Shown: positions 1,978 through 59,554 of the stretch, in pieces | How positions within the stretch are numbered: position 1 is the first letter of the stretch | Layout: each line of letters begins with the position of its first letter | IMG/VR virus record: IMGVR_UViG_2551306416_000003 | Span: 444 to 64,443 of that record | Origin: a virus | Taxonomy: Duplodnaviria; Caudoviricetes | Length of the DNA: 64,000 nt | Strand: one strand, 5' to 3' | Notes under the pieces: model-generated | What the model was told of the DNA's origin: nothing | What the model saw: only the letters and a program-made list of their open reading frames with translations | The model's database searches: none | Program-made: the position numbers and the translations under genes

Positions 1978-3132
1978 TTAGCGACTGAACATCTGGACAG
2001 CTTTGGAACCCGCGTCAGGCTGAGCGTCCTTGACCCAGCGCCCGTAAACCCGGGCGATCATTGTCCAGTCTGAATGCCCCATTTGTTGTGCAACCCACAT
2101 TGGGGATTCGCCTGCAGTAAGCATCATACTTGCATAGGTATGTCGTGTTTGGTATGGGCGGCGATATCTGACTTTGGCCGCATCAATGGCGCGTTTCCAT
2201 GCACTGCGAACTACCAAATCGCCACTCCATCGTTTCCCGGTCCTTGGATTAGTGAAAATAAAGTCAGTTTTCCCTAACGTATGAGCTTTTTGGCCTTCGA
2301 GTGCCTCTAATGCCGGAGTTAGCAGTTTAACGTCGCGTTTACCCGCACGTGTTTTTGGCGGCTCGGCATCGCTCTTGTTCGCAATCGCTGCACGAGTGAG
2401 AGCCCGTCTAACCTGGATTGTTTTCCGATGCCAATCTATATCGGACCACTCGATAGCAATCAACTCTGATGTACGCAAACCGGTCCAGAAGGCAAACTTG
2501 AACATGTTGCGATCTTGACCTTCCATACAACTGAGGATCTGCTGTTGCTCGTTAGCAGAAAAAGGATCAACGTCATCTTCTGTTTTCACGACAGCGCGAC
2601 TCTTCCACTGCCAACCGTATAGAGGATTGGTGTCGATTAGCTCGTCTTGTGCCGCTAAATTCAAAGCGGATCGCAAAACCGATAGTCGGTTTTTGATTGC
2701 TTTTAGACTGGTCTGCTGGCTTGAGCACCAGTCCTTAATTGTCTTTCGATTTAAATCGCTTAGTTTGGTGGTGCCGAATGCCGGAATCAGGTGGTTGTTT
2801 ACGACTTTGCGGTACCCATCATAGGTAGACGCTTTGAGGTGGCTTCTTTGAGCATCCAACCATGAGTCCAGATATTTCTCTACCGTTAGTATTTCTCCTT
2901 TTCGCTCGGCAAAATAAGCCGCCCGAGGACTATCTGGGAAAGTTACTCGATACTCAAATGTTTGCTTTTGAATAGCGTCGAGGATTGCTGCCCTATGCTG
3001 GGCCGCTCGCTTCATATTCGCAGGGGTTGGGGCGAGCTTGAGGCGTTCGCGGCAGCGCTTGCCACGATAGGTAAAGGTGATTTCGATTGACGTTTCACTA
3101 GCCGCGACGACGCCCGTGCCATTTCTACCCAT
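1978..3132 (-). CDS. int: Tyrosine integrase with N-terminal arm-binding domain
   Basis: TGLRTSEL, PYQTRHTYAS, QMGHSD...VYG catalytic motifs; adjacent to tRNA. Confidence 0.95.
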   Translation of the reverse strand: MGRNGTGVVAASETSIEITFTYRGKRCRERLKLAPTPANMKRAAQHRAAILDAIQKQTFEYRVTFPDSPRAAYFAERKGEILTVEKYLDSWLDAQRSHLKASTYDGYRKVVNNHLIPAFGTTKLSDLNRKTIKDWCSSQQTSLKAIKNRLSVLRSALNLAAQDELIDTNPLYGWQWKSRAVVKTEDDVDPFSANEQQQILSCMEGQDRNMFKFAFWTGLRTSELIAIEWSDIDWHRKTIQVRRALTRAAIANKSDAEPPKTRAGKRDVKLLTPALEALEGQKAHTLGKTDFIFTNPRTGKRWSGDLVVRSAWKRAIDAAKVRYRRPYQTRHTYASMMLTAGESPMWVAQQMGHSDWTMIARVYGRWVKDAQPDAGSKAVQMFSR

Positions 3133-9694: not shown

Positions 9695-9898
9695 TCACCT
9701 AAATTTCAGTTCAAATTGTTTAATAGAAGAATTTATATTCTGCAACTGCGGAGAACCGCGTAAGTCAATCGTCCATCTAGCCCCTGTCACCCCTTGAGAG
9801 CTAGATACTGAACGCAATGTAACTGTTTGACCTCCTCCAAGATCTGCGACCCAAACACTCGGAGTTTTCTGCTCTAGGGGTGACTTCCCAGCCAGTTG
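9695..9898 (-). pseudogene. Last 67 codons of a CdiA-CT toxin, out of frame with upstream cdiA
   Basis: Manual translation QLAGKSPLEQKTPSVWVADLGGGQTVTLRSVSSSQGVTGARWTIDLRGSPQLQNINSSIKQFELKFR*, ending 4 nt before the immunity start. Confidence 0.7.
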
Positions 9899-12570
9899 TT
9901 GTGCATACCCGACACCCCTGCATTGAAGAGTAAGCCATCGGTACCAATTGAGACACCCACCGATCCCGACATCGCCTTGTTGCTGCTGTGCTGTTCGGTC
10001 GTACTTTGCGCAGCCAGCAGGCGCACTTCGTTGTCGGCTTTCAGGAGCGTGTTGGCACCGGACCTAATGTCGCTGCCTTGCACAATGAGGTTGCTGTCAG
10101 CACCACCGCCCTGCGCAATCAGGCTGATGTTGCCACCCGCATTGAGGGTGGAACCGCGTGCGGTACTGGCATTGGATTGACTGTGGTTCTCGCTCTGGCT
10201 TGCGCCCAAGCTGATGGCTAGATTGATCCCACCTACCTTGTCAGCTGCCGTGGCGTCGCGGGTCTCGGGGTTGCCGTCGGCGCCGAGCTTGGGCTTGCCG
10301 TTTTCATCAAGGGCATTTGTCCGGACTTGCGGATTGTCTTTGCCATCGACCTGAAAGCCCTGGCCCGTTCGCACAGCATCCACTGCATTCTTGCCCGCAA
10401 AGCCGATATTAGCTGCAGCTAGCAATTGCATCCGCCCGCCCGAGGTGTTCTTCGCCGCGCGCGCCATCTGCTGCGCCGTCTCAATCGCCGACAACACCGG
10501 ACTGGTGATCTGAACCGTCAGGCCGCTTTGCTTGAAGACCATATCCTGCGTATTGCGTTCGGTCTCAGCCGCTGCAAGAATACTGATGCGCTTGGCCACA
10601 ACATCAATATCTCCCCTGGGGGCAATCACATTGCTGCCACTCTGCGTATAGGCATTGCCCGCCTTAATCGAGATATTGCCATCAATGCTGCCCACATTGG
10701 ATGACACTGCGGTGGTGCTGACGGTGGTGTTCTTGTTATCCAACTCGCGCGTGCCGATGGTGAAGCCGAATCCACCGCCACCAAGCAAACCGCTGCTCTT
10801 CTTATTGCTGCTGTTGGCGGATTCGAACTTGTCACTGGCAGAGACGACCGTGATGTTGTCACCCGCCACCAGCGAAGTCCCGGCGCTCGATACGACGTTG
10901 CTGCCGATGATGCTCATGTCCTTGCCCGCTTGCAGCACTGTCGTGTCGCCGCTCAAGGTACTGCCCACGGCATTGGTATAGGCACGCTTGCCATAGCTGG
11001 TGCGTGTGGTGCTGGAGGCCAGGCCGCGCGAGGTGCTTGTGGCGTATTCGCTATGGCTACGATAAGCATCTTCGGAAACCACATTAATATCACCGCTGGC
11101 CGCCACTGCCAGTGCCTTACCAGCAGTGATGTTGCTAGCAGCCACCTTGACGTCCGCTTGTTCCAGCAAGCCCGCCTTGATGCTAATTCCATCGGCGGCG
11201 TTGATGTTGCTGCCCACCACATTGACGCCTTGATCGTCTGCTCGCACGTAGGATCTGGAGGTGGTGTGGCTCACCATCGATTCGGACTGATCCAGTGCCG
11301 CCCCAATCGTCACCGCTCGTCCAGCCATCAGCGAGCCGCTACCAATGCCATTGCTGCCGATGTCAACCTGCGCCGCGGTCATGCTCAGATCGCGCTGCGC
11401 TACCAGCGTCAAGTTGCTACCGGCGTTGATGTTGGAGCCTACGCTGGCGACGCTTTGGGCGCTGCCCAGATAGCCACTGAAGTTGGCATTGTAAGTGCTG
11501 CTGGTCTTGATCGTGTCCAGCTTGATATCGCGACCGGCGCTTAAGCTCAGGTTGCCTGAAGTGGCATCTCCTAAGCGACCGCTGGCCAGCGTTGAGCCCA
11601 GATTGCTGATGTCTGCACCGGCACGAACGGTGAGGTTCTTGCCGGCCGCAATGCTACCCTGGTTCGACAGCGAGGTGTAACTGCCGCTGGTCTGGCCGTT
11701 AGCGTAGTTCTGGGTAACGGTGAGGGCTTCGTTGTTCACGTTCCTGCCGGCACTGATCACGATCTCGTCGCCGCTGATCTTCCCGCCCAAGTTGGAGAGG
11801 TCATTAGCGGCCACCAGAACGGTGCGGCCGTTGCCACTGGCGCGGCCGTCGATGAAGCCCCCCTTATTGGTAATGTTTTCGGCCTGGATGGTAATGTCGC
11901 TGCCGCTGATCAGGGCGCCGCTACTGAGCAGCGCGTCCTTGTCCACGTGCGCCAAGTAGAGCCTGGGGACCAGGACGTCTTCGGTACGACCATCAGGCAA
12001 GACCACCTTCTGTGATTCCAGCCATACGATGTCGCTGGTGAGATGGCTGACCTGTTCTGCCGTCAACGCCACACCGGGGCGCAGGTCCCAGCGTTTTGCC
12101 ACACTCACAGCATTGGTCAACAACCGCTGGTATTGGGAGTCGTCGTTGGCGCTGCCGCTGGGCCGACCGGTGAGTTGGGCCATTTGCTCACGCACCAAAC
12201 GCTGCTCGTAGAAACCATCACCAAGACGTTTTTGGGTAGTGGAGGGATCGACGTTGAGCGCTGTGAGCAGGTAGTCGCTGCTGAGCCAAGTACGGTGGTC
12301 AGTGAATTGGGAACGTGTCTCCAGTAGATAGCTGGCACTTGCCGAGGGCCGGAACAACACCCCTGGTCGAAGGGGGAGAGGAACGTTGCCGTTCTGCGGG
12401 AATGAGGCTCCGGCGGGGAAGCCGCTCATGCTCGGTAAGCCTCCAGTGGAGGGAAGTGCGCCGCCTGGTATCGTGACGCCAGGACGGCCGGCCACATTGC
12501 CCAGCAAGCCACCGATGGACTGGCCACTACCGGTTGTGGGAGTGATGTCATTGCGGATGTTGGCTGCACT
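9874..12570 (-). pseudogene. cdiA: Truncated cdiA-like exoprotein (YP region and FHA-2 repeats)
   Basis: LSSDYLL.AL...KRLGDGFYEQRLVREQ motif and haemagglutinin repeats; no signal peptide, TPS domain or CdiB nearby. Confidence 0.88.
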
Positions 12571-12916
12571 CCCATGTACCCAATCAAGAACAAGCCGGTG
12601 CCGGTGATCATCGGCACCGTCAACCTGCTGACAACGATGCAGAAAGTCATGGATCGCAAGCGCAACAGCAGAGCGATGCTCAAGAGCTCCAAGAAAAAGT
12701 GACCGATAAAAAGCACCTTTCGTTGGTGAAAACTCCGCTTGACCCGAGTTAGCGCTGCTACCACCCTCATCATTGCCATAATCTGTGTATAGCGGAGCTG
12801 GAGGATGAATGTCCGTTGTTGGGAAAGAGCTTTATACGCTGCCAGGGCCAATAAAAGAACATTGCCCCTGGCAATCTTTACCGGCGCATCTACGCTACTA
12901 ATTCGATAAGGGATGT

Positions 12917-13150
12917 ATGTCTACCTACCAAACTGCAGACAGCTCGGGCGCATTTATTTATGAGCTGAAATATTCGCATCATTCAGATGGATGGCAGATG
13001 AATAGCATCTCCGTTCTGCGAAGCGACAATGAGGTTTTTTCGAAGAAAGATCTTGCCGGCGTGTATCGGGCAGAAGCTGTCTTACTTGCGCAAGGTGTCA
13101 GTATGTGCGAAGCGGTAATTGCGCGGCTTCGCTCGCCTGTTTCTTTCTAA
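12917..13150 (+). CDS. Hypothetical protein
   Basis: 77-aa ORF with AAGGA RBS. Confidence 0.5.
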   Translation: MSTYQTADSSGAFIYELKYSHHSDGWQMNSISVLRSDNEVFSKKDLAGVYRAEAVLLAQGVSMCEAVIARLRSPVSF

Positions 13151-13677
13151 GCGCTAAACAAAAATTCAAATTGCAGATGTTCGACCGAAAGTATTTGCGA
13201 AAATTATCTGTTGCTTTTGGCGCAATTTTTCACAGGTTTCACTAGTTTTGTAACGTTCACTCTCCAACTGGAAATGCATCCGGTTGAGGTAGAGCCAGAT
13301 GGAGTTACCCCATCTCTTATAGCCAGGCGGCCACGATTCAAAGAACGGCCAAGCCGGCAAATCCCCCCCAATTGTCCTCCCCTATGTCATGCCACGCCTT
13401 CGCCGATTTTAGGGCGGCCTGTTCACGCCCCATTTCGTCGCCACATCATAGCCTTTGTTCGCCGCTAGTAACGCATGAATTAATTTTCCAGCTAGTGCGT
13501 GCGGAATCGCATTGCGCGGCACATCGAAGTTCTCAAATGACAATTTACGGTGCTCCCCAGCTCTGCTGAGCTGGACTAGGCTTGTCTGAATATTCTGTCC
13601 GGCAGGGTCATTAAGGTAGGGATGGAAGGAAATTATTAAAAATGCAACAATAATTTCGCTCGGACCCTGTGCGCGCG

Positions 13678-13696
13678 GTTGCCCCCACCCCGCGCC
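13678..13696 (-). other. P2-type cos site of element 1
   Basis: Minus strand GGCGCGGGGTGGGGGCAAC, a 19-mer resembling the P2 cohesive end GGCGAGGCGGGGAAAGCAC; identical copy at 56447-56465 with similar flanks over ~145 bp. Confidence 0.75.
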
Positions 13697-14224
13697 TGCC
13701 CGCTATATAGGTCGGATTTGACTCAAATTTGCATCAGATGCTGAAGCCTGTCCAATCTGGCCCGGCGGCACCGCCAATGGGCGCCAAACATGACGCATTT
13801 TGACGCAGGATAGGGTGTTTTTCGCGGCCCCCGATCCTTGGGCATAATTTTCGCTATAACATCTTTGGGGAGTGTAACCAAAGCGGTGCGCTTCAAGGAG
13901 GGAACCCGGCGAGATCGTTCTCGAACTGATCGATGTCCAGATCGAGGTCATCAAGTCTTCGCGCATGATTCTCCAAGGGAACGCCGGCAAGCTCAAGGTG
14001 TACCGGTTGAGTTCTCCAAGGGGCGGCTGTGCGGGCAGCATGCATCTACTTGAGGCCCCCAGTAGCGATTTTTAGCGTAATGGGGGAGACCGACGTCAGC
14101 TGCCAGGTTGCGTAGGGACTGCGGAACAACGGCGTTGGCTATCATTAGGCCGGTGTCGGCCATTGCTATGGAGCGCCAACATTGGGGAAGCATTTTCAAC
14201 CGAGACAACAAAAAAAATCTAATT

Positions 14225-15328
14225 ATGGATATCACATTCAGAGCGGCGTGGAGAATGCCTTTAGGCTTTAGTCTTAATCTAGATTCTCTCCCAATTGTGG
14301 TCCATTCCGAGGACGGAAAAAAATTTACTCTCGCCAATGAGCCAGTCGATGATTTCTTTTCAGAAATTGACAAAGGGCGAGCTCTGTGGGAACTGCATAC
14401 TGAGGTTTTGGAGTCCCACGAAGAACTCACCTATGCAGAATATAAATCGCGACTGGATACCTATATCTCCTTGCTGAGGAAAGACCGGCTAATCCAGCAT
14501 TGGAAAGGCAATGAAAATTTCATCACAGGGGCGCGTTACACCGTATTGCTGTTTGAAGTTACAGCAGATATCGAGCCGAAGGAAAAAATGGGGGGACTGC
14601 GCATATTCGGATTAGTGGATCTGATGGTTACGGAACCATTGGAGCAATACTTTCACAACCAATATAAACAAGAAATTGATCGCATTAAATTGGCCATCAG
14701 CTTGGAGAATGAAAGGCTGGAAACATTCGAATATATTGGGAGTGGGACCTTCTCCAAAAATGATGATGGCGAGGTTGTGCACCATGTGGGAGTCAGTTCG
14801 ACGTCAAATGGAATTTATATTCCCGACGAATACGAAAATGATCATCTAGAAAGAATAAAAAGAAGAATAAAAGTCATGCCTCTAACAAAGAACTTCATAC
14901 AAATACAAAATTTACTTTCCATTGGGTTGGTGCCTGGAGCAGATCAACGGCAATCATTTTTGTTAATTTGGAATGCATTCGAAAGGCTTATCGTCGACTG
15001 TCACGCCGAGATTGAAAACAGTGTTCTTTCCGAAAGCATCCCGCTTCAGACTTTTTACAATCAAAAAATTAAGAAAAACCTGTCTGAAAAACGAATAATA
15101 GGTCTTCCAGATCACTTTTTCAGAATGGCTGCTGCGCTTGATCCAACTGCGAGGGATATGGATGCAAACACCGAATTTGATCTATTCTTTTCGATTATAA
15201 GTATCAGAAATCGCATGTTCCACGGCTCGACTGTTGATGTCGGCCCTGATGTTTTGCACAGCCTTCGCAAGTTACTTAGAAAATACCTGTCACGCTGGAC
15301 CGATAGCAACCTCAGAAAAGATGAGTAA
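14225..15328 (+). CDS. Putative HEPN-domain protein (candidate anti-phage RNase)
   Basis: FLLIWNAFE helix and C-terminal RNRMFH (Rx4H); AT-rich; next to cos. Confidence 0.6.
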   Translation: MDITFRAAWRMPLGFSLNLDSLPIVVHSEDGKKFTLANEPVDDFFSEIDKGRALWELHTEVLESHEELTYAEYKSRLDTYISLLRKDRLIQHWKGNENFITGARYTVLLFEVTADIEPKEKMGGLRIFGLVDLMVTEPLEQYFHNQYKQEIDRIKLAISLENERLETFEYIGSGTFSKNDDGEVVHHVGVSSTSNGIYIPDEYENDHLERIKRRIKVMPLTKNFIQIQNLLSIGLVPGADQRQSFLLIWNAFERLIVDCHAEIENSVLSESIPLQTFYNQKIKKNLSEKRIIGLPDHFFRMAAALDPTARDMDANTEFDLFFSIISIRNRMFHGSTVDVGPDVLHSLRKLLRKYLSRWTDSNLRKDE

Positions 15329-15436
15329 CTATGGCGCTCGCTAAACCGCACACCGATGAAAATGGCGAAGTCCGCCCGCTCAAGCAAGGCAGTGATTGTA
15401 AAAAAAGGATCTATTTCTTGAGGAGGAATTGTTAGC

Positions 15437-15769
15437 ATGAGCACCATGGCGAACGCGATTAGAGAGAGTTTGCAAGATGCACCGACTGGAGCCACACGAA
15501 GTCAAATTAGAGACTACGTAGAAGCGAATTATCCTGGTAATTGGAAGCCAGGGACTTTAACTGCGCATCTATATGGCTGTCAGGTAAATAATGCGGTTGC
15601 CTATCGTCATCATCCCTTTGCTGAAAAGTTTTTGTTCAAAGCGGAAGATGGCCGTTTTCATATTTACGACGAAGCAAGGCATGGACCGAATATCTGGCGC
15701 GGTTCTGATGCCGACGTAGATATCGTTGACGAAAATGATATTGAGCAGCGAGTGGAAGCGTCAATCACT
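15437..15769 (+). pseudogene. 3'-truncated gene, winged-helix-like N-terminus (possibly of a NucS/Mrr-type nuclease)
   Basis: ORF runs into the IS21 relic after EASIT; family assignment is tentative. Confidence 0.45.
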
Positions 15770-16243
15770 GTTCCTTTGCTCGCAGAACTGACCCGGTCTA
15801 ACTGATCCACTTTCCACTGCCTAGCAAACGCTGCAACACGATCATATGAACCGTCGAATCCGAGCAAGCGTAGGTCTGCATGCATCTGCTTGAGGCTGCG
15901 TTTTTGCTTTCTAGATTTGGTGGATTCCGTTTTTAGCCACGTTGAAAGCTTGAATGCGTATGCATCCAAAGCACTGGCCGAACGGCGGTCTGCGTAGGCT
16001 GGCTCTACAGTTTCAGAGCGCAGGTAACGTCTAACGGTGTTCCTTGAAATGCCAAGTCGCTTGGCGATCTCTCTTAGCGATATCTGGTCTCGTAGGTGCC
16101 AGCGCCGAATAATTCCTAGTAATGCCACGTCGATCACTCCAATCTCCCACCTGATTGCCTAGGTAGGATTGTGTCTCAAACGTGGGTCAATTTTCGATGC
16201 AAAAAACCCAGCAAAGTGGGTCAGTTTTCGATGCAAATCTACA
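15770..16243 (-). mobile_element. istA: IS21-family relic: left end plus 5' third of istA
   Basis: MIDVALLGIIRRWHLRDQISLREIAKRLGISRNTVRRYLR; terminal TGTAGATTTGCATCGAAAACTGACCCAC with a second repeat at 16182-16203. Confidence 0.9.
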
Positions 16244-16585
16244 GCCAGTCTTCTGAGCAACGAGCTCCCGCCTGGCAATTTTATTTTCGATGTAAAAAAA
16301 TTTCGACTGATTGACGTTTTCCCACGCCGCATGAATACGGCGATTGCAGCAGGGGGCGGCGGCATTCTCGCCGGACTGACAGCTTCCATACCAGAAAATG
16401 AAGACAATATTACGTGTATGGTATCGGGACAATTACAGGAAAAACACATTGATCTCGCGATCAGCGAAATTTATCACCTCTCACCACTCGCAGGTCTAGT
16501 CGCCAACGACCCCAGCTTCAAGAACGCTGTCAATAATTGCCTGAAGAGACTCGCACATGAGGTGGCGAAGGACGAGAATAGATAA
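16244..16585 (+). pseudogene. 3' remnant of a gene interrupted by IS21
   Basis: Frame open from the IS end to TAG at 16585; no start outside the IS. Confidence 0.4.
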
Positions 16586-16793
16586 CCGGTTTCACTGGGT
16601 ACGAAGGGCTGGTGAGGCCCTCGACGTCTTCATTTAGGCGCGGATGAGGTAATACTTGCGATCAGTGCAAAACAAAGTTGTTGGAAAAAAATTACCGGAG
16701 ACAATGTCCTCAATCGGCCAGAAGAGGACTATGCATACGTCATCCGAGGGGATGCTCTAATTCGGCCAGACGCGAATCTTGGGAAACATAAAA

Positions 16794-17243
16794 ATGGCAT
16801 ATACCCTTCAGGCATTCGTCCTGCCGCGACCTTCTTTAGAAAATGGGGACTCGGCTAGCTTTCCGGGCCTGGTGGCGTTAAATCAGGGGGTGGCTATGAT
16901 TCCAATTACAAGCGCTCTGCGAGCGGCCACCGGCATTCCTTTCCTTCCTCTGACGGATGGTGGTGAAAAAGCGATGCCACGCTCGTTGATTGCTTTTTGC
17001 AAAAAAATCGCTCTTCCAGGTCCAGTCCTATACTTGGAAGCCGAATACTTTGGAGGCGTCGGGACGCAAGCGTATGCGGTGTTCAACGGCGGCGAATTGG
17101 TTTCAGGTCCGATTGTCGGCGCTGATGCAATTAATTCCGCGCTTGCTTTGGTCGGCGTCAATGTCTCCGAGGATCAGGATAGATTTGGCGTTGTGGGACT
17201 GAATAAATATCGCGATACGGATCAATGGGTTACAGGGTCGTAG
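16794..17243 (+). CDS. Cassette gene 1, hypothetical
   Basis: YLEAEYFGGVGTQ motif; stop codon 2 nt before a hairpin repeat. Confidence 0.75.
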   Translation: MAYTLQAFVLPRPSLENGDSASFPGLVALNQGVAMIPITSALRAATGIPFLPLTDGGEKAMPRSLIAFCKKIALPGPVLYLEAEYFGGVGTQAYAVFNGGELVSGPIVGADAINSALALVGVNVSEDQDRFGVVGLNKYRDTDQWVTGS

Positions 17244-17305
17244 ACGTCCGCAATCGGCCATAAGCGGACCTTCGGCACTTGATTTGCTAGTGGGCAATAA
17301 GTCTG

Positions 17306-17352
17306 TTTTTCAGCTTATTCTGAAGGGTAGATAACGGACAAATCCCGCCCCC
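17306..17352. repeat. 47-bp direct repeat of 21876-21922 (recombinase C-terminal tail and partial att core)
   Basis: TTTTTCAGCT[T/G]ATTCTGAAGGGTAGATAACGGACAAATCCCGCCCCC, 1 mismatch. Confidence 0.9.
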
Positions 17353-17522
17353 ACGCCCATCAACCACCTTCGCATGATTTGCTGGGATTCATACCGGATT
17401 CCACATCCGGACACCCCGATTTTTCTTTGAGCTAAGATGTCTGCTATCGGCCAGATTCAGGCAAAGAAATCGGCCAACGGCAGTAACTTGTTTAACCTAA
17501 ATCGGCGAGCTTCTTGAAAAGT

Positions 17523-18083
17523 ATGAAGGTCACTCCCCCATTCGACGAACTCGCCAAAGAATACGGCGTGGAAGTCGTACGTGATAAAGGCAATTCCGTA
17601 ATTTCGATACCAAGCATCTCAGAGGTGCAGTTGGATATCGGCTTTATATTGCATCGCCCGCCGTCGCTATTTGAGAAGTGGAGTTTTATTCGTACTGTGA
17701 CTATCGCCGAGGACTTATGCTGTTATGGCCGTGGTGCAGAGTCACTGGCAAAGTTTGTACAGCGTGACGAGGAGTTTCTGGCCTCCTTACGTCTTCTGTT
17801 AGAGAACTTTCGAAGCGAAATTGTATGGTCTGATTCGCTCTTATATACGAGATTAAGTCCTTATGTCGCTGAAAGCGATGTCACCGGTGGTAGACGATTT
17901 TTATCAAACTTTTCACTTCTAGCAGCACGTCTCCAAAAATACGCAAGCCAGGGAATTGGCGTTGATACAGATACAAACGGCTATGGTCCCAGGCACATTC
18001 GCCGCTTGGTGTCTTTGTTAATTATCCTGGTAGGAGTGGTTTTTGGGACCGGTATTTTTTACGTTCAAAATATCCGCCATTAA
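17523..18083 (+). CDS. Cassette gene 2, membrane protein with C-terminal TM helix
   Basis: LVSLLIILVGVVFGTGIFYV; flanked by repeats. Confidence 0.7.
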   Translation: MKVTPPFDELAKEYGVEVVRDKGNSVISIPSISEVQLDIGFILHRPPSLFEKWSFIRTVTIAEDLCCYGRGAESLAKFVQRDEEFLASLRLLLENFRSEIVWSDSLLYTRLSPYVAESDVTGGRRFLSNFSLLAARLQKYASQGIGVDTDTNGYGPRHIRRLVSLLIILVGVVFGTGIFYVQNIRH

Positions 18084-18179
18084 AGCGGCAGGACAGGAAG
18101 CTTAAATCCACAGGGATGTCCGCAACCGGCCAAAAGCAGTCGCCTGAAAACTGACGAAAATCCTAATGGCGAGGAACAA

Positions 18180-18629
18180 TTGATGATCAACGGTGAAAAA
18201 ATTCTAAGAGATATACCGCTGTCAAATAGGCTCGACGCGTTGCTACGCGCGGCTGATATTGCAAACGAGGTAAATAGGGTTAGTCATCCGAATACTTTTT
18301 GTGCTTGCAGACAGGCGATACAAAAATGTAGAGATTGGTTAGATAAGAAGGAGATTTCTCCAGAAGCTTTGGCTGAGTATGTTGATGCCGATGGTGATGC
18401 TAATCCTTGGATGCAGGAATCGATTTTCAAGCCCAATTCTAGTGGGCTGCAGTCACTAATATTCATAACAATGGTCGTGGGGCATGTCGCTCATTTTTCT
18501 TATCTTCGTGTCGGTGACTCAGAGAAAATGTCTGAGGCCGTCACCGAGGCTGGCGACAATGTATTGAAGTCTATCGCGGAGTACGGCGAGAAATATGGTC
18601 TTGATGAACTGATACAAAGAAATCATTGA
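18180..18629 (+). CDS. Cassette gene 3, hypothetical (immunity-like, acidic helical)
   Basis: 149 aa with RBS GAGG; flanked by repeats. Confidence 0.7.
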   Translation: MMINGEKILRDIPLSNRLDALLRAADIANEVNRVSHPNTFCACRQAIQKCRDWLDKKEISPEALAEYVDADGDANPWMQESIFKPNSSGLQSLIFITMVVGHVAHFSYLRVGDSEKMSEAVTEAGDNVLKSIAEYGEKYGLDELIQRNH

Positions 18630-18706
18630 GAAGGACGGTAACGTCTGCTATCGGCCAGAAGCTGCCGTTCTGGTAAAAAATCTTTCCAAGAAAAATTGCG
18701 GTATAA

Positions 18707-19117
18707 ATGGACCAAGAACCAACACCCGACTTAGCCATGAAAGAAAGCGACTCATCGGCAAATGAGGTTTATATCCAGGCAAATAGACATAGCTCCAAGA
18801 CACACGAAGGAGCGAGAAGTGACATCTTGGAAGCGGGTAATTTGCCTGCTGGAAAATTGCTTTCAATTAACCGTTGGGCCTATGATCCTAGTGGAAGAGG
18901 CTTCGTCGTTCGCCCTGATATGACTCTGGATCTGAGGCCAAATCGACCTAATCAAGTCCCACGGCACGTGGTAGATGGAAAATCTTCAATGAACGCGGCT
19001 GCGTCATCCGATTCACAGTTCAGTCTAACGAGCCGCTACCTGGAAACTTCTTTCATCAAGGCTGCTACGCCGCTGGGATTATGGACATGGCCCGGGGCCA
19101 TTAAAAAAGGAAAATAA
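18707..19117 (+). CDS. Cassette gene 4a, hypothetical (possible toxin tip)
   Basis: Ends 3 nt before gene 4b. Confidence 0.5.
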   Translation: MDQEPTPDLAMKESDSSANEVYIQANRHSSKTHEGARSDILEAGNLPAGKLLSINRWAYDPSGRGFVVRPDMTLDLRPNRPNQVPRHVVDGKSSMNAAASSDSQFSLTSRYLETSFIKAATPLGLWTWPGAIKKGK

Positions 19118-19120
19118 GGG

Positions 19121-19501
19121 ATGGGAAAGAAAGAGCTGCGAGAGCTTGAGAAAAATCTTGATTATGCGTTGATTGCCGTTAGCTGCTATCGCAAGGGCAG
19201 TGATGAGGATTTCATTCCTCACGGAATCAAAATGGTTAACGAAAGCCTCGAAGCGGCTAAACGCGATCTGGAAATGTTAGGTTTGTATGAACAATGTCGC
19301 GATGCATTGGTGTGTGCTGAATTGGTCAAGCCTGGGCCTGCGCACGATGATGAGGCCGAGAAGCTGCTTTTGCAGGCTTCCCGAGCTCTCATGGAAGCCT
19401 CAGGTAGCGCTGCAGCCATGCGTAAGAAGTTGCGAGAAAAACCTGACGCCACGCTGGATGACATCAGGTCTGGTCCAGATGACTGGGCGCAAGAAGGATG
19501 A
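19121..19501 (+). CDS. Cassette gene 4b, hypothetical (possible cognate immunity)
   Basis: 126 aa, AAGGG RBS, tightly coupled to 4a. Confidence 0.65.
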   Translation: MGKKELRELEKNLDYALIAVSCYRKGSDEDFIPHGIKMVNESLEAAKRDLEMLGLYEQCRDALVCAELVKPGPAHDDEAEKLLLQASRALMEASGSAAAMRKKLREKPDATLDDIRSGPDDWAQEG

Positions 19502-19662
19502 CATAGCTAAAGATTAGCTCTTCAATATCTCCGCCCCCGCACTTGGCATGCCGGCCCTTGTTTTTCAGGTGGCACGCAGGGAGCACCACTTCTTGAAACT
19601 GATGCGACATCACGTGTCCGCAACCGGCCAATTCAGGACGTTTAGCTTCTCCAAGACATTTT

Positions 19663-20280
19663 ATGCTCCAAGACTATTTCAATCAGCTAAAGCGCGCCGA
19701 CAGGACGTCCAGTGCCCTCTTTGACGCCGAGACGGTGGTAAAGCAAAGCAAACTTTTTGCATTTCACCCGGTGGTGCAAGAGCTCCGCGGCTACATGTTG
19801 GACGACGAAAACACAAGCAATCATCATCTTTTGATTACGGTCGAGCCACTGGCTGGAAGCGTTTTTTTTCTTTCGCACGATGACGATTCGCGAGTGGTTT
19901 TTGAAAGTACGGCTGATTTCCTGGATGCCGTCGGTAAGGCTGAAGCCGAAGGGCTGTCTGTGGCTGACCTGCATCCGCGCTTGAGCCCGGTTGCGAAGGA
20001 CCAGATTGCACTTGCGAAATTCATTCACGAGCTTCTACGCCGAGAATGTAATGATCTGGTCGTCTACCTCGTGCCTTCGCTGGACCTCGAAGATCTGTCG
20101 TTGCTTCAACTACTTGCAAATGACGATGACTTCTTCTTGGGAGAGGCGGTCGCCATAGAAATCGAGAAGCGGCCTTCGAAAGCGCTTTTGCCCGTCGCAG
20201 CTATATGTGCTGACCATGGACATCCCCAAGTTTCTAGCCCCGGACTGCGCGCTGTGCGGTGTATTCAGCAGCTTCTTTGA
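19663..20280 (+). CDS. Cassette gene 5, SUKH/SMI1-like N-terminal half plus helical-repeat C-terminus
   Basis: LAGSVFFLSHDDDSRVVFESTADFL resembles the SUKH C-terminal motif; stop 2 nt before a repeat. Confidence 0.6.
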   Translation: MLQDYFNQLKRADRTSSALFDAETVVKQSKLFAFHPVVQELRGYMLDDENTSNHHLLITVEPLAGSVFFLSHDDDSRVVFESTADFLDAVGKAEAEGLSVADLHPRLSPVAKDQIALAKFIHELLRRECNDLVVYLVPSLDLEDLSLLQLLANDDDFFLGEAVAIEIEKRPSKALLPVAAICADHGHPQVSSPGLRAVRCIQQLL

Positions 20281-20342
20281 ACGTACGCAACCGGCGAGAT
20301 GCGGACATTTTTAAAAATCACTGATACGCGAAAAAATTTCCT

Positions 20343-20756
20343 ATGAATCCGAACTTGGAACAAGCTCTTTTCTCAATCTCTTCGAATCAGGAGAAAAGTT
20401 CGGGGGACTATGACGAGAAAGCACTATTGGCTGTCGTGGAAGAATTTGGCCTTCCCGATCTCGGAGACCGAATTTACACAGAGATTCCTCCCACGGTTCC
20501 CTTTGAGCTCGTTTGCATACTCTTCGATCTGCTTGCTTGGAGAACCGATGACAATGGCTCCAGCGTTAGGCGCGCAACTGAACGTTGGCTCATAGAGGGC
20601 AGGGATGAGCGAAGAATGCTAATTGCACTGCATCTTGAAGCGTACCCGTTCATCTCCGAGAAAGAGATGGTAGAGGTGTTATCCAAGCTGAAATCGACTA
20701 ATCCACAGATCACACACCGTTGCGCGGAGCACGTACGGATGCGAAACGGTTTGTGA
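20343..20756 (+). CDS. Cassette gene 6, hypothetical immunity-like protein
   Basis: 137 aa, LAWRTDDNGSSVRRATERWL; flanked by repeats. Confidence 0.7.
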   Translation: MNPNLEQALFSISSNQEKSSGDYDEKALLAVVEEFGLPDLGDRIYTEIPPTVPFELVCILFDLLAWRTDDNGSSVRRATERWLIEGRDERRMLIALHLEAYPFISEKEMVEVLSKLKSTNPQITHRCAEHVRMRNGL

Positions 20757-20849
20757 AGCTAGCACCAGCACTCGCAATACAGCGCGGATGTCCGCAACCG
20801 GCCAGAAGCAGACAGGCGCAGTTTTTAGATCATACGTAGAACAGAAAAA

Positions 20850-21314
20850 ATGACGATCATAAAAAAGCAGTTCGTTCCGCTGGTGAGTAACGAAGCCATA
20901 GCTTCCTTCGAAATGGAGCTTGGGTATCAACTGCCCACTACTTATCGCAATTTTCTTTTGAAGTACAACGGTGGAGAGCCTTTCAATTGCGGGGTAATTT
21001 CATCCGATGGCTTTTACGGTGACGTATCCATTCGCTATTTCTTCTCGGTGTCACAAAATCCAACGTTCGGTCTAGCTCATAAATACGCAATCTATTCAGG
21101 CGCGGGCCGAACACCTAGGGAAATGCTGCCTGTAGGCGGTGATGTAGGTGGAAACCTAATCTTGCTGGCTCTGGCGGGGTCGCAACTCGGCAGCGTTTTC
21201 TTTTGGGATCACGACATCGAGGGATTGGTTGATGATCCGAATTCACCGAGACATCTCAGACTTCTGGCGGATACATTTGACGGGTTCATCGCAGGGCTGA
21301 GCCCGACTTCTTGA
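20850..21314 (+). CDS. Cassette gene 7, SMI1/KNR4 (SUKH) immunity protein
   Basis: IASFEMELGYQLPTTYRNFLLKYNGG...PVGGDVGGNLILL...GSVFFWDH...LADTFDGFI. Confidence 0.9.
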   Translation: MTIIKKQFVPLVSNEAIASFEMELGYQLPTTYRNFLLKYNGGEPFNCGVISSDGFYGDVSIRYFFSVSQNPTFGLAHKYAIYSGAGRTPREMLPVGGDVGGNLILLALAGSQLGSVFFWDHDIEGLVDDPNSPRHLRLLADTFDGFIAGLSPTS

Positions 21315-21400
21315 AACTGGTGCGGTATCACTTGTCCGCTTCCGGCCAATGTCCGCTATCGGCCAGAAGCAGACCATCATCCAAATGAAACCCAGTAATC

Positions 21401-21829
21401 ATGAATATACGTGAACTTGAGCAGCGTCTACATCAAGAAGGTTGTAACGGGGCCAACTACGCAATTGGGGAGCGAGGTACGGCCTCTGATGCCTTCTGTT
21501 TAACTAATAATGGCACGCAATGGATGGTGTACTACACGGAGCGAGGACAAGATACGGCTCCAATATATACATCTGGTAGTGAACATCAGGCTTGTGAGTT
21601 CTTTTTCACGCACATTATGGCGATGCGTCATGACCACTGCGTGGGATTCTATAAAAATAAAGCTAATGCCGAAGCTTTAATGGCCAGGTTGAATGTTATG
21701 AATATAGATGCTTGGCTCGATGAAATTCCGTTCGGAGGGCCTTCTGATCCGAGATTTCGCGTGTTTGTCCAAGGCAAAGCAATATTCGAAGTTAGAGACA
21801 CGCTTGGTATTTCACGACTTGAGGACTGA
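21401..21829 (+). CDS. Cassette gene 8, Imm59-like immunity protein with C-terminal extension
   Basis: YAIG....DAFCL....WMVYYTERG......SEHQACEFF. Confidence 0.65.
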   Translation: MNIRELEQRLHQEGCNGANYAIGERGTASDAFCLTNNGTQWMVYYTERGQDTAPIYTSGSEHQACEFFFTHIMAMRHDHCVGFYKNKANAEALMARLNVMNIDAWLDEIPFGGPSDPRFRVFVQGKAIFEVRDTLGISRLED

Positions 21830-21879
21830 CATCCGTGGTGGTCCGCAATCGGCCAGAAGCGGACCTTTTTAACTATTTT

Positions 21880-23466
21880 TCAGCTGATTCTGAAGGGTAG
21901 ATAACGGACAAATCCCGCCCCCGCAACCAGTTTTAGAGACATGCCGCTAGAAGCTAATAATAGTTTCTCAGCGGCATTGTTGTATTCAGCGTAGATATTC
22001 TCGCCCTCGGCGACGACATCGATCTTCCCATAAAGCTCGGCCACCAAAATGCGCGCCTGCTGCACGTCAGCGGCCAAGGCGCTTTCTAGGTTGGCCAGCG
22101 TCTTCCCGATCCTTTCCCCGATTTCTGCTGCAGACGGTCCGTCACTGCCGGCCTTTGGCTTGCTCGCCGCCAGTTGGCCACGCTCGGCCTCGGCCGCTCG
22201 CAGCCGATCCGCCAGAGCCTGAGAGGTACCAATGCTGGCAATGGCATCTACCAAGCGCTGAATTTCCCCATCCAGTTCCTTGCGCCGTCTGGCCGCTGTT
22301 GCGCCACCGCTCATACTGCTGCGCTGGTGCTCTGCCAGGATGGCTTGCACCTGCCGTCGCAACTGTTCCTGTGCGGCAGGGGAGAGCAGCTCATCGCGCA
22401 AGGTTTCCAGCAGGTTCTTGTCGGCGGTCTCTCGCTTGAAGTGAATGCCTTTGCAAACCGTTGGCCCGCGATCCTTTCTATTAGCGCAGCCATACAACCG
22501 GGAGTTGATGGCTATGATGGCACCCCGGCAATACGGGCAGGCCATCAGGCCGCCAAACAAGGTCCGTACCGGCGCTCCCTGTTTGCGGCCAGGTAGCCGG
22601 CCATCGATCCGCTTGCGCACGGTCTGCCACAGATCTTCATCGACGATGCGCAGCTCAGGCACCTGAATTTCTCGCCAATCCTCACGCGGTCGGTCCACTC
22701 GTTGCCGCTTGCCGGTGTCTGGATCTTTCACCCACTGCGAGCGGTTCCAGATATACAGACCCTGATACAGGCAGTTGTTGAGAATGCCGCTGCCCTTGTT
22801 GGGCGAGCCGTAGATGGCCGATACCACCCAGGTGCTGGCGCGCGGGGAGGGGACTTTGCGGGCGTTGAGTTCATGGGCGATACGCTGCACGCTCCAGCCT
22901 TCGGCATAGCGCCCGAAGATCCAGCGTACCCAGCCGGCCTGAACATCGTTGACCTGATACTTGCTGCCGAGGTGGTCGCGCACGATGTCATAGCCATAGG
23001 ACTTGCCGCCAGCGGCATAGCCGCGTTCGACCTGGCCGGCCTGGCCACGGTGCGTCTTGTGGCGCAGGTCATCGAGGAACATCTCGTTGATGAGCCCGCG
23101 CACGCCGCGCATGATCTTGCGGCCACCCATGCGACTGTCGTAGCTGTCGGCCACGCCGATGATGACGATGCCGCGATGCTCCAGGCGGCGCACCAGTTGC
23201 TCTTGCTCGACCTGGTCACGCGACAGACGGTCCAGGCCTTCCACGATCAACACATCGAAACGACCATTGAACGCATCCATGAGCAGCCGCGCGCCGCCAG
23301 CGCGGCGGGCTACCGGCGTGGAGCCGGATACCCCGTCATCACTGTAGCGCTGGGCCACGTCGAGATCTTCACGCTCGGCGCGCCGGGCGCAGATGGTGAA
23401 TTGATCCTCGATGGAGGCCTCGCGCTGCTTGTCGGTGCTATAGCGTGCGTAGATCGCTGCTTTCAT
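21880..23466 (-). CDS. Large serine recombinase (integrase of prophage 2)
   Basis: MKAAIYARYSTDKQ...DDGVSG...EGLDRLSRD, recombinase domain, CPYC...C zinc ribbon, coiled coil. Confidence 0.95.
   Translation of the reverse strand: MKAAIYARYSTDKQREASIEDQFTICARRAEREDLDVAQRYSDDGVSGSTPVARRAGGARLLMDAFNGRFDVLIVEGLDRLSRDQVEQEQLVRRLEHRGIVIIGVADSYDSRMGGRKIMRGVRGLINEMFLDDLRHKTHRGQAGQVERGYAAGGKSYGYDIVRDHLGSKYQVNDVQAGWVRWIFGRYAEGWSVQRIAHELNARKVPSPRASTWVVSAIYGSPNKGSGILNNCLYQGLYIWNRSQWVKDPDTGKRQRVDRPREDWREIQVPELRIVDEDLWQTVRKRIDGRLPGRKQGAPVRTLFGGLMACPYCRGAIIAINSRLYGCANRKDRGPTVCKGIHFKRETADKNLLETLRDELLSPAAQEQLRRQVQAILAEHQRSSMSGGATAARRRKELDGEIQRLVDAIASIGTSQALADRLRAAEAERGQLAASKPKAGSDGPSAAEIGERIGKTLANLESALAADVQQARILVAELYGKIDVVAEGENIYAEYNNAAEKLLLASSGMSLKLVAGAGFVRYLPFRIS
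21908..22064. repeat. ~155-bp direct repeat with 60691-60845, starting at the putative att core
   Basis: Identical first 49 bp, then scattered substitutions and a 2-nt gap. Confidence 0.92.
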
Positions 23467-23605
23467 GGTGCTGTATATAGAGTGCTTTTTCGGTTTCATC
23501 ATCGCCGGATAGTTCCGGCGCCTGCTGCAGAACTTCGTTTGCCACCTGCTCGGCCAGCATTCGTAGAAGCTGGCCCCAGGCGGTTGGATTTTTAATTGCG
23601 AGCAT
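23438..23605 (-). CDS. 55-aa ORF missed by the track; candidate recombination directionality factor
   Basis: Manual translation MLAIKNPTAWGQLLRMLAEQVANEVLQQAPELSGDDETEKALYIQHHESSDLRTL*; overlaps both neighbours; occupies the xis position. Confidence 0.45.
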   Translation of the reverse strand: MLAIKNPTAWGQLLRMLAEQVANEVLQQAPELSGDDETEKALYIQHHESSDLRTL

Positions 23606-23951
23606 CCATTCTCCCCCTGTCGATAATGTTGGCGCTGTAGTCGCTCAGGCACAGACGTCTAGCTTCGCGGTTCGGAGTATTGCGGCGCAGGTCTCCGGCA
23701 TCATCGCAAGTGAGGATGTCTGCCAACGGCACGCCGCGGAACAGCCCGGCGGGCTCGTTGTCGAGCTCGACCCAGGCGAATCGCTGACCGTTGCCCAGGT
23801 GCTGACGAATGACCGACACATAGCCGGCCAGCACGCCATCGTCGGGCGTGTTGAACGTGATGCGGTCCAGGGACTGCGGGGGCTGCATCACGAAGTCACG
23901 CGGCTTGCTGCTGGTGGTGGCGATCACATCAAATTTCACGGGTGCATTCAT
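23592..23951 (-). CDS. Phage hypothetical protein
   Basis: Paralog of 3355-3720. Confidence 0.7.
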   Translation of the reverse strand: MNAPVKFDVIATTSSKPRDFVMQPPQSLDRITFNTPDDGVLAGYVSVIRQHLGNGQRFAWVELDNEPAGLFRGVPLADILTCDDAGDLRRNTPNREARRLCLSDYSANIIDRGRMDARN

Positions 23952-24094
23952 TGCTTCTTCTCCTTGGTGGCCGTTACAGAGCACACGCCAAAGCGATCGA
24001 CGGCGGCGGCGATCACGTCGCAGCTATGGGCTGCGATGGCGGTGTAGGAATGGCGTGCGCTGGCAGTGCGCACGACGACACGAAACGCTGTCAT
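23948..24094 (-). CDS. Small phage hypothetical protein
   Basis: Paralog of 3717-3863; ATGA overlap with the gpA stop. Confidence 0.65.
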   Translation of the reverse strand: MTAFRVVVRTASARHSYTAIAAHSCDVIAAAVDRFGVCSVTATKEKKQ

Positions 24095-56417: not shown

Positions 56418-56446
56418 TAAATCACTTTCCCGGCCCTGCGCGCGCG

Positions 56447-56465
56447 GTTGCCCCCACCCCGCGCC
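56447..56465 (-). other. P2-type cos site of prophage 2
   Basis: Identical to 13678-13696; lies downstream of the portal gene as expected. Confidence 0.78.
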
Positions 56466-56958
56466 TGGCCGCTACATAGGTGGTTTTTGACTCAAATTTG
56501 CGTCATCAGCCGAAGCCCTCCCAGCCTGGCCGGACGCCCCAACCTTAGGACATCAAATGTGACGCATTTTGACGCATCGGCGCGCTGGTTACCCGTTGTC
56601 AAAGTGGAGCGATTCTGCTATTTCTTCTATAAATATTAAAATTTCAACAATGACTTTAGGTGCAAGGATGAGCGAACAAGGGGAAGCAAATCAGGAGAAT
56701 CAAAAGTCCGGAGCAACGGATCATGTCGTTAAAGCGCCAAAAATCCAACGACAAATAGCTACCACCGATCTGCCTCGCAAAACCTTGGAGGAATGCATGG
56801 CGGTCGCGCGTCCAATTTTTGAATTCTATGCAGGTAACGCAGCGACGTGAGGTAGATGCCCCTAGAGTCTTCCGGTCACACTTACCGAGTCTCACGTATA
56901 CAGACCTCTTAACGATCTGTTGTCATTTTAAAAAAGTTGGAACCTTTTAACGCATAGT

Positions 56959-58344
56959 TTGCATTGTCTTATACCGGGGGAGCTGGTGAGTAGCGAGAAA
57001 TTTAACGAGAACGGACAGGTAGGTTCAACTACCGTCAGAGTACTTACACAAGCAAAAAATACCGATAGCACGGAACGTCCAGCGGTTGCTTTAGTAGTAG
57101 AGCAATACGAAAAGGCTGTCAGGGTCATCTCGGAGACCGCGCGTATAGCTCTGCCCCATATCGTGCGATGGACCGCTGACGAGATGGATGCATTGCAAAA
57201 GAAAATCCAAGGTGTCGTCCCCCTTTCCTCAGACGATAACATCGTAACGATAAAGCTACCATCTGCCAGAAAATTCGCTGAGTTCCGAGACGACCTCAAA
57301 CGCTTCGATGACCTCCGTGCGATAAACACAGCTAGCGTATTGACGCGAAGCCTTTTTACACAGCTGTTCGCGGAATTTGATGCGTTCATAGGAGAACTCC
57401 TCAAAACCATATATCTGAAAAACGATAATCTCTTGAAGGGGATTTCAAGGGAAATTTCTTTAGCTGAGTTGTTAGATTTTTCTGATTTGTCGGCTGTAAA
57501 GAAGGCGCTCCTGGAAAAGGAAATCGACTCAATACGGCGCGACAGCTACGTTGAGCAATTTTCTGCGCTCGAAAAGAAATTTGGGATCACTTTGAAGAAA
57601 TTTTCTGAGTGGTCGCAATTTGTCGAACTCTCTCAGAGAAGGAATATTCTCACCCACAACGGAGGGGTAGTGAGTGATCAGTATTTGGCCGTATGTGGTC
57701 GGGAGGGCTATAAATTCAGTGGTGTTGCACCCAAAATCGGAGATTTGCTTGACGTACCTTTTGACTATTTTGTCTCGGCCTCTCGGCTGCTATCAAAAGT
57801 CGGTTTGATGCTTGGTTACACGCTCTGGAATAAAGTATATCCGGATGAAACCGACTCGATGCATCACGAACTAAACAACCTTCTCTATAGCTGTCTTGAG
57901 CAAAAGCGATTCAAATTCGTCGCTGAGTTAGGGGATTTCGTTTTTAGTGAGCCTATGCGAAAAAAGCTTGTGGACATCGACTATCGCGTTCGGATTGTGA
58001 ACATCGCAATCGGAATGAAATTCTCTGACAATCACGAACAAGCAATTCAGCTATTGAGATCGGTAGACTGGAGCGCAAGCTATCGCGACTTCCGGCTGGC
58101 CCAAGCCGTGTTGGAGGACAGATATGCGGAGGCTACGGAAATGATGAAGAATATCGGTAAAAAAGGAGAGATCCTCAATCAGGACGCCTACCACTCTTGG
58201 CCGCTATTCAGTCGATTCCGCGAAAGACCTGAATTCTATGACGCATATCTTGAAATTTACGGGGAACCCTTTTCTGAAAAGCTACCGGGAGAACAAGGTG
58301 AGGTTCAGGCTCCGACAGTAGCAGATGAGGAACTTCCCGAATGA
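56959..58344 (+). CDS. Putative HEPN-domain protein with helical-repeat C-terminus
   Basis: LFAEFDAFI and RNILTH (Rx4H); AT-rich; start may be GTG at 56986. Confidence 0.6.
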   Translation: MHCLIPGELVSSEKFNENGQVGSTTVRVLTQAKNTDSTERPAVALVVEQYEKAVRVISETARIALPHIVRWTADEMDALQKKIQGVVPLSSDDNIVTIKLPSARKFAEFRDDLKRFDDLRAINTASVLTRSLFTQLFAEFDAFIGELLKTIYLKNDNLLKGISREISLAELLDFSDLSAVKKALLEKEIDSIRRDSYVEQFSALEKKFGITLKKFSEWSQFVELSQRRNILTHNGGVVSDQYLAVCGREGYKFSGVAPKIGDLLDVPFDYFVSASRLLSKVGLMLGYTLWNKVYPDETDSMHHELNNLLYSCLEQKRFKFVAELGDFVFSEPMRKKLVDIDYRVRIVNIAIGMKFSDNHEQAIQLLRSVDWSASYRDFRLAQAVLEDRYAEATEMMKNIGKKGEILNQDAYHSWPLFSRFRERPEFYDAYLEIYGEPFSEKLPGEQGEVQAPTVADEELPE

Positions 58345-59502: not shown

Positions 59503-59508
59503 AATTTT

Positions 59509-59532
59509 AAAGGGAGTTTCGCTAACTCCCTT
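59509..59532. terminator. Hairpin between convergent R and M genes
   Basis: AAGGGAGTT-TCGCT-AACTCCCTT. Confidence 0.65.
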
Positions 59533-59554
59533 ATCTCCTGTTAATCACTGCGGT

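Follow-up and report, generated by a model that had tools for sequence, protein, structure and literature searches.

Short CGGCCA-centred sites delimit a putative integron-like cassette array next to a P2-like prophage

This study concerns a 64,000-nt stretch of DNA from a Caudoviricetes record (IMG/VR IMGVR_UViG_2551306416_000003, positions 444 to 64,443), here called the window, and more specifically an array of small genes and short repeated sites at positions 16706-21864 within it. We read the array as eight cassettes with nine genes that belong to an integron-like, non-integron system, which would operate through short sites and a small tyrosine recombinase. Judging from sequence comparisons, we put the probability of this reading at about 60%. 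It draws on the layout of the sites, on the breakage of homology within them, on differences between sister isolates at the same positions, and on related sites in many other genomes, where a candidate recombinase gene is repeatedly found next to a site.

Short sites and cassette junctions

Scanning the window for the 24-mer GTCCGC-WAYCGGCCARAA-GCGGAC, with up to six mismatches allowed, returned ten matches, all on the + strand and all within 16706-21864, and not a single match in the remaining ~59 kb. A preliminary description of this DNA had counted about ten co-oriented 24-bp copies between same-strand genes, a count that the scan bears out. The 12-nt loop searched by itself (up to two mismatches) occurs 18 times compared with 6.6 expected occurrences, and none of 100 shuffled sequences reached 18. 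From left to right, the sites are S1 (16706-16729), which has perfect arms (GTCCTC/GAGGAC), folds well (z -3.1) and has a degenerate core nearby at ~16760-16771; S2 (17246-17269); S3 (17439-17462), whose right arm has decayed and which is followed by two more degenerate cores at ~17471 and 17503; S4 (18118-18141), whose arms do not pair and which we read as a hybrid of two half-sites; S5 (18643-18666); S6 (19616-19639); S7 (20283-20306), with the core CGGCGA; S8 (20790-20813); S9 (21351-21374), a complete site fused to a truncated copy consisting of left arm and core (21335-21350), together spanning 21335-21374; and S10 (21841-21864), the last site, a perfect palindrome with a T run behind it. 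All are on the + strand.

Seven of these sites start 2-36 nt past a stop codon, the distance being only 2 nt for S2 (after gene g1) and S7 (after gene g6), and the distance from a site to the start of the next gene is 23-51 nt. Nine + strand genes, g1 to g9, occupy the gaps between the sites. One gene junction, at 19117/19121, is without a site, and we therefore count the two genes on either side of it as one cassette; the other seven of the eight cassettes are single-gene, and all are on the + strand. No sigma-70-like sites were found on the + strand within the array, and its G+C content is 0.485, compared with 0.58-0.60 in the adjoining prophage.

The preliminary description had also proposed that the 24-mer is a recombination or excision site, and the positions at which homology between duplicated and shared cassettes breaks off speak for this proposal. 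In the large array of Noviluteimonas caseinilytica described below, four segments are duplicated at 90-98% identity, and six of their eight ends fall at or within a site. Segments common to different genomes (pairs with 99%, 97% and 83% identity) also end in sites. When g6 is compared with its homologues on five metagenome contigs, the alignment begins exactly at the upstream site's CGGCCA core, runs on past the stop codon and breaks off in the left arm of the downstream site; a relative of g6 with 41% identity is situated between two clean sites. Within the window, a repeat made up of a SUKH-type gene tail and a site (19581-19632 and 21299-21350) shows the same behavior, its homology ending just past the CGGCCA core. 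We interpret the first copy as the scar of a lost cassette, in which the 3' tail of a SUKH-type gene is followed by S6 (19581-19639, + strand; 85% identical to 21299-21350).

These comparisons support the view that the sites are recombination junctions. In the mechanism that we propose, a site would be built from two inverted arms of ~11 nt (ATGTCCGCnnn and its inverse) around the 6-nt centre CGGCCA, giving ~24-28 bp of double-stranded DNA, and a tyrosine recombinase would exchange strands in the central region. Such an exchange would produce the mosaic of left and right arms seen at the junctions, because each junction would be a hybrid that takes its left arm from the upstream cassette and its right arm from the downstream one. 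Most junction sites would be imperfect palindromes for the same reason, their two arms coming from different cassettes.

We then compared the window (positions 12500-24000) with the assembled contigs of four conspecific isolates, taken from four studies, and counted as evidence only stretches covered by a contig. Cassette order, which had been put forward as a point of comparison, indeed varies among these close strains, in that the contigs of the four isolates join or end differently at S3, S5, S9 and S10. At S3, contigs join 17455 to 18641/18643 (S3 to S5) and 17455 to 21844 (S3 to S10), and other joints connect 20005 to 21340, 21348 to 21875, and 13736 to 17306. The sequence upstream of S10 differs from the window in each of the four isolates, with the change-over in the left arm at 21845 or 21849; in isolate X1 the upstream sequence is an end resembling a miniature inverted-repeat transposable element (MITE), while the flanks of X5 and X6 resemble each other. 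At S2, isolates X4 and X5 have loose ends at 17259 and 17254, where a foreign end abuts the GGCC core, and at S5 a MITE-like end adjoins the core in X5 (loose end 18656).

A MITE-like element of ~135-150 nt, whose terminal inverted repeats begin with GAGGCTGTGTAAAAAC, was observed in two Herbaspirillum-type genomes (L152:7751-7900, L152:1445-1600 and L084:1865-2015). Its insertion point is precisely the GGCC centre of family sites, and a 4-bp GGCC duplication accompanies it. The foreign ends that adjoin the GGCC core of S2, S5 and S10 in isolates X1, X4 and X5 match its terminal repeat, and the possibility that these ends represent an inserted cassette was rejected on that account. The element thus appears to target sites of the family, in the way that IS1111-attC elements target the attC sites of integrons.

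The site family, its candidate recombinase and rival explanations

Sites of this kind are found well outside the window. At least 119 loci carry the exact core pattern, usually as ATGTCCGC...GCGGACAT, and they come from Lysobacteraceae, Oxalobacteraceae, Pseudomonas, sphingomonads, Acidobacteria and others. In 33 genomes we counted between 1 and 33 strict matches each, compared with 0-1 for a reversed control, and the matches form co-oriented clusters. The largest array seen is that of N. caseinilytica (G001, C1:2772770-2811429), with ~60 sites over 38.7 kb in addition to a small second array, and 30 of the 34 perfect-stem matches in this genome lie inside the two arrays. The preliminary description had raised the question of an ordinary repetitive extragenic palindrome (REP) scattered through the genome, and such a distribution is not what we see: both in the 33 genomes and in Noviluteimonas the matches are clustered at gene boundaries. 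Site orientation relative to the genes is uniform per array, being the same strand in Oxalobacteraceae and in the window and the opposite strand in Lysobacteraceae. N. caseinilytica has two near-inverse variants of the site, which between genes are frequently paired at a distance of 13-34 nt, and such inverted doublets are confined to Lysobacteraceae arrays.

The cargo of arrays elsewhere comprises GNATs, hydrolases, transporters, GGDEF, CHAT and AbiGi proteins, one gene similar to Imm33 and a large number of unknown proteins. When 29 and 100 array open reading frames (ORFs) were tallied by Pfam family, no recombinase appeared and the cargo proved very mixed. Clustering of all ORFs around the 119 site loci gave no specific recurrent neighbor, only a single Imm33-like gene and generic families (LysR, SDR, response regulators, AcrB and sigma factors).

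A search of five array-bearing genomes for tyrosine recombinases led to Herbaspirillum robiniae, where a gene for a 205-aa tyrosine recombinase (L155:4819-5436) lies 1.2 kb away from a site. Among 35 site-bearing genomes, nine have an intact homologue of this protein (65-74% identity across genera) and three more a broken one. In seven of eight loci from different genera a family site starts 29-90 nt past the recombinase stop codon, and inverted sites bracket the recombinase gene in 6 of 22 loci; the background is 1 site-like match in 362 kb. The protein is Xer-like and consists of a catalytic domain only, without an N-terminal domain, and its closest solved relative is the catalytic domain of XerD. 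NCBIfam has no specific model for it, and it scores 26 bits against the integron-integrase model, the cut-off of which is 265. We regard it as the best candidate for the enzyme of the arrays, at roughly even odds; if so, the ~205-aa recombinase would itself travel as a site-flanked cassette. The only PF00589 match in the window is a 384-aa phage integrase with an Arm-DNA-binding domain. With no copy of the small recombinase there, the window array would therefore be recombinase-less at present, comparable to a cluster of attC sites lacking an integron-integrase (CALIN), and would be served in trans or not at all.

In several genomes (loci L190, L192-L194 and L197) a conserved stem-loop (GACTCCG...AAGGAGTC), located ~20-45 nt upstream of the start of the small recombinase gene, overlaps its ribosome-binding site, and this stem-loop may control translation of the recombinase.

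The broader claim that follows from the family as a whole is that of a widespread cassette system in Proteobacteria and beyond, with ~28-bp sites and a CGGCCA crossover, a cassette-borne ~205-aa recombinase, chromosomal arrays of up to ~60 cassettes, and turnover in the cargo hotspots of P2-like phages. We consider this claim to be evenly poised between right and wrong.

A number of observations weigh against the cassette reading. The ~205-aa recombinase was not found in the 64-kb window, nor in Noviluteimonas, the genome of the largest array. Among 151 Burkholderiales, 23 have the recombinase (including the unpublished genome G061, which enters no other result) and 10 have a strict site, and only one has both; some of the Burkholderiales recombinase genes are flanked by diverged CGGCCA-centred sites. 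Given the negative outcome for strict co-occurrence, the link between enzyme and site therefore rests on adjacency and on an assumed co-divergence of the two. A site-flanked recombinase gene could be a mere passenger cassette, and breakpoints at 24-bp repeats could also result from homologous recombination. As for the isolates, the data are assemblies, several contig joints are marked 'between: not known', and the breakpoint at 20005 is away from any site, so that we take the contig evidence as supportive rather than decisive.

Some of these points would be accommodated if the sites were true recombination sites served by another enzyme, either host XerC/XerD, as in pdif modules, or some other host recombinase, the small recombinase being a frequent passenger. 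Large arrays with duplicated cassettes do occur in genomes that are without the small recombinase and have two Xer-type genes, the strict-pattern co-occurrence of site and recombinase is negative (1 genome with both among 151), and the proposed length and 11-6-11 layout would fit Xer-type sites. Still, we hold this explanation to be unlikely, as the same recombinase family is site-flanked in 7 of 8 loci across genera, which is unusual for a passenger amid diverse cargo; the site arms also look unlike the dif consensus. A little further down in likelihood we place selfish palindromes akin to REPs, bacterial interspersed mosaic elements (BIMEs) or REP doublets forming hairpins (REPINs), which would insert after genes and give rise to breakpoints through homologous recombination or slippage between repeats. 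The sites are indeed short imperfect palindromes directly past stop codons, the inverted doublets of Lysobacteraceae, 13-34 nt apart, are REPIN-like, and a small transposable element appears to target the site centres. However, copy number is low and the copies are clustered rather than genome-wide, Noviluteimonas, with most copies, has no Y1 transposase of the REP-associated (RAYT) type (PF01797, E<=0.1), conservation of the site reaches across classes and phyla, where REPs are lineage-specific, and the half-site pattern around g6 would be unexpected from the insertion of whole palindromes.

The position of the sites 2-36 nt past stop codons, together with the T run after S10 and the good folding of three copies, might also suggest elements that act at the RNA level on a polycistronic transcript, be it as processing or stabilising hairpins, as terminators, or as translation attenuators near stops. 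When folded as single strands, three of the ten copies (16706, 17246 and 21841) do better than shuffles, whereas the other seven, with z from -0.9 to +0.5, do not, which speaks against the hairpin structure proposed in the preliminary description. That description had also pointed to a compensatory stem change at 16706, which turns out to be an anecdote: across 257 family sites, 294 arm changes are one-sided and 42 two-sided, and 15 of the 42 restore a Watson-Crick pair, which equals the chance rate. A terminator scan called none of the window sites, S10 being the only one with a T run; an Rfam search of 16000-22500 gave a chance lncRNA match only; the orientation of sites relative to genes is reversed between clades; and the breakpoints would be left unexplained. 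Because of these results on covariation, folding, terminators, Rfam and orientation, which argue against an RNA element and against a requirement for a folded hairpin, we consider an RNA-level role very improbable. Since the arm changes are non-compensatory and only 3 of 10 copies fold well, the site is, as far as sequence can tell, a sequence-conserved double-stranded recombination site and not a structural hairpin. Lastly, the window's own enzymes had been named as candidate catalysts, namely a serine recombinase (21880-23652), a tyrosine integrase (1978-3132) and HUH proteins of the gpA type. What favors them is proximity only, S10 and the end of the gene for the serine recombinase being 16 nt apart, and we see next to no likelihood that they act on the sites. 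The serine recombinase attaches at a core of its own, which corresponds to the tRNA-fMet 3' end and is repeated at 21910 and 60693, and 27 related prophage loci with such a recombinase are without any site; the tyrosine integrase sits at tRNA-Ser; and arrays are present in chromosomes far from such genes and in genomes without these enzymes.

Cassette genes and prophage setting

All nine genes of the window array are on the + strand. The first two, g1 (16779-17243, 154 aa) and g2 (17514-18083, 189 aa), have no family, whereas g3 (18180-18629) belongs to the Imm6 immunity family (Pfam PF14434, E 2.3e-6, 27.9 bits with a cut-off of 25). The two-gene cassette (18707-19501) follows, with g4 (136 aa) and g5 (126 aa) 3 nt apart and no site between them. 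For g4 (18707-19117) there is a weak lead to a Tox-REase-type toxin domain (Atlas scores 0.88-0.89), and g4 and g5, as the sole two-gene cassette, may constitute an orphan toxin-immunity pair. The product of g6 (19663-20280, 205 aa) has a SUKH/HEAT-like lead, derived from an Atlas lead at 0.88 and a weak hhalign match; hhalign of g6 against g8 gave a probability of 7%, and a search for g6 in 251 genomes of the family returned two distant matches, both without sites. Downstream, g7 (20343-20756, 137 aa) has no family, g8 (20850-21314) is a member of the SMI1/KNR4 (SUKH-1) immunity family (Pfam PF09346, E 3.6e-22), and g9 (21401-21829, 142 aa) is again without a family. Besides g3, g4, g6 and g8, the five further genes had neither a family match nor a lead in Pfam or NCBIfam; with g4 included, six genes are without a family in these databases. 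A tblastn search of the cassette proteins of the window against a first set of site loci gave no match.

Two immunity-like genes, one of SMI1/KNR4 and one of Imm59 type, had been named in the preliminary description, together with a search of the cassette proteins against immunity-family hidden Markov models. The SMI1/KNR4 gene was recovered by Pfam (PF09346), while Imm59 was absent from the Pfam search at E<=0.1; the search did add Imm6 to SUKH-1 and left the rest without a Pfam immunity family. Recognisable immunity genes thus make up only two to three of the nine, namely the Imm6 and SUKH-1 genes and the SUKH-like lead g6. An array devoted to immunity genes finds no support here, as Pfam backs Imm6 and SUKH-1 only and the arrays elsewhere hold mixed cargo.

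The serine recombinase at the right edge of the array is the integrase of an intact P2-like prophage (21910-60712), which is bounded by a 20-nt core equal to the 3' end of tRNA-fMet, at 21910-21929 and 60693-60712. Close relatives of this prophage are inserted in a genuine tRNA-fMet gene (L130 and L128), whereas the window is without a real tRNA-fMet gene. Its left attachment junction (prophage B; 21873-21929, + strand) consists of a phage-type pseudo-tRNA half and the 20-nt core and overlaps the 3' end of the serine recombinase; it is context and lies outside the cassette machinery. Within the array, at 17303-17359 (+ strand), there is a relic of an attachment region, a pseudo-tRNA-fMet half and a core with 3 mismatches, which is 91-96% identical to 21873-21929. 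In all, three attachment cores of the tRNA-fMet type are present, at 17340-17359 (decayed), 21910-21929 and 60693-60712, and after the prophage, at 60691-60845, we observed a 155-nt relic of the 3' end of a second serine recombinase. Integration has taken place repeatedly at this one site, which makes the locus a palimpsest.

A second P2-like element, virion-less and with the tyrosine integrase mentioned above (1978-3132), is located at tRNA-Ser, and segment 13665-13807 matches 56434-56576 of the prophage. The array would accordingly be placed in the variable cargo zone, from cos to att, of decayed tandem P2-like elements, beside the intact P2-like prophage. The cargo zone of the intact prophage (56959-58344 and 58801-60334) encodes a BglII-like restriction endonuclease, an MT-A70 methyltransferase and a 461-aa protein without a family, and contains zero family sites. 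Upstream of the array, an AT-rich cargo zone just past a cos-like segment (14108-15805, +) encodes a 406-aa protein without a family and then a DUF7669 protein, possibly a defence module. At 15664-16137 (-) we found a relic of the N-terminal helix-turn-helix part of an IS21-type IstA, and related IstA relics are also present near arrays in two other genomes (L154 and L156); a conserved segment upstream of three arrays was resolved as a relic of the IS21 istA N-terminus. Further upstream, the virion-less P2-like element contains a CdiA-like ORF of 877 aa (9874-12507, -), apparently a fragment, which has filamentous-haemagglutinin repeats.

Relation to known systems

Our literature search found no published description of this cassette system. 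The stockpiling and shuffling of single-gene cassettes is, in textbooks, the work of integrons, and a second, mechanistically simpler system would broaden that picture. If our reading is right, this system, with its short double-stranded sites and minimal recombinase, would reach into bacteria and phage cargo slots in which integrons are seldom found, and would provide a concrete mechanism for the exchange of defence, immunity and accessory genes at prophage hotspots. As a small genome-engineering tool, too, a 205-aa recombinase with a 24-28-bp site would be attractive. To this the window adds a case of sister isolates that differ at the sites.

REPs and BIMEs are present in tens to hundreds of extragenic copies genome-wide and have a cognate Y1 (RAYT) transposase. 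The present sites share with them, and with REPINs, short palindromes past stop codons and, in some clades, inverted doublets, but they are low-copy, clustered in arrays of accessory genes and conserved across phyla, and no RAYT was found. In the recombinase-associated acquired interbacterial defence (rAID) arrays of Bacteroidales, orphan immunity genes have reportedly accumulated beside the recombinases of mobile elements. A gathering of orphan immunity genes next to such recombinases is common to both cases; rAID arrays belong to another phylum, only two to three of the nine window genes are recognisable immunity genes, and we know of no report of punctuation by small sites in rAID arrays.

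A parallel in setting comes from the cargo slots of P2-like phages. In P2, gene G is directly followed by a family-like 24-mer (arms GTCCAC/GCGGAC, 8 of 12 loop positions matching) that lies at the left edge of fun(Z), and a degenerate inverted copy is found at the right edge. Inverted repeats on either side of the Z/fun slot have been reported for coliphages of the P2 type (Nilsson, Karlsson and Haggard-Ljungquist, 2004, Mol Biol Evol 21:1, as cited), and the 24-mer at the left edge fits that report as far as its cited content goes. The P2 slot is a single one bracketed by two sites, in contrast to the multi-cassette array described here. No enzyme has been assigned to the bordering repeats in the literature as far as it could be traced, and a preprint on P2/P4 hotspots explicitly leaves the mechanism of exchange open.

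The proposed system also resembles the pdif modules of Acinetobacter plasmids, which depend on XerC/XerD: small modules of genes lie between ~28-bp two-arm sites that have a 6-nt centre, recombination is, or here would be, carried out in trans, and the closest solved relative of our candidate enzyme is XerD. However, pdif sites alternate in orientation around single modules, whereas all 10 window sites are co-oriented in an array; the arms and centre of the present sites look unlike dif; a dedicated small recombinase is associated with them; and the system is present in chromosomes and in prophage cargo zones of many classes.

With respect to integrons, the preliminary description had held that the sites are not attC-like and that no IntI is present, and both statements stand: the sites are 24-28 bp long without RYYYAAC/GTTRRRY ends, and the sole PF00589 match in the window is a phage integrase. 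The attC sites of integrons are 57-141 bp long, have R''/L''/L'/R' boxes with RYYYAAC and GTTRRRY ends, and are conserved in structure, whereas the present sites are conserved in sequence and show no sign of requiring a folded single strand. The candidate enzyme, at ~205 aa and without an N-terminal domain, falls far below the cut-off of the IntI model; its gene is cassette-borne, and no attI platform was seen. What the present system has in common with integrons and CALINs is its organisation: small genes, mostly one to a cassette and apparently without promoters of their own, stand in co-oriented arrays with a recombination site after each, and gain, loss and duplication take place at the level of cassettes. 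Many of its arrays are without a recombinase, as in CALINs, and in both cases small proteins of unknown kind, GNATs and genes for toxins or immunity make up most of the cargo.

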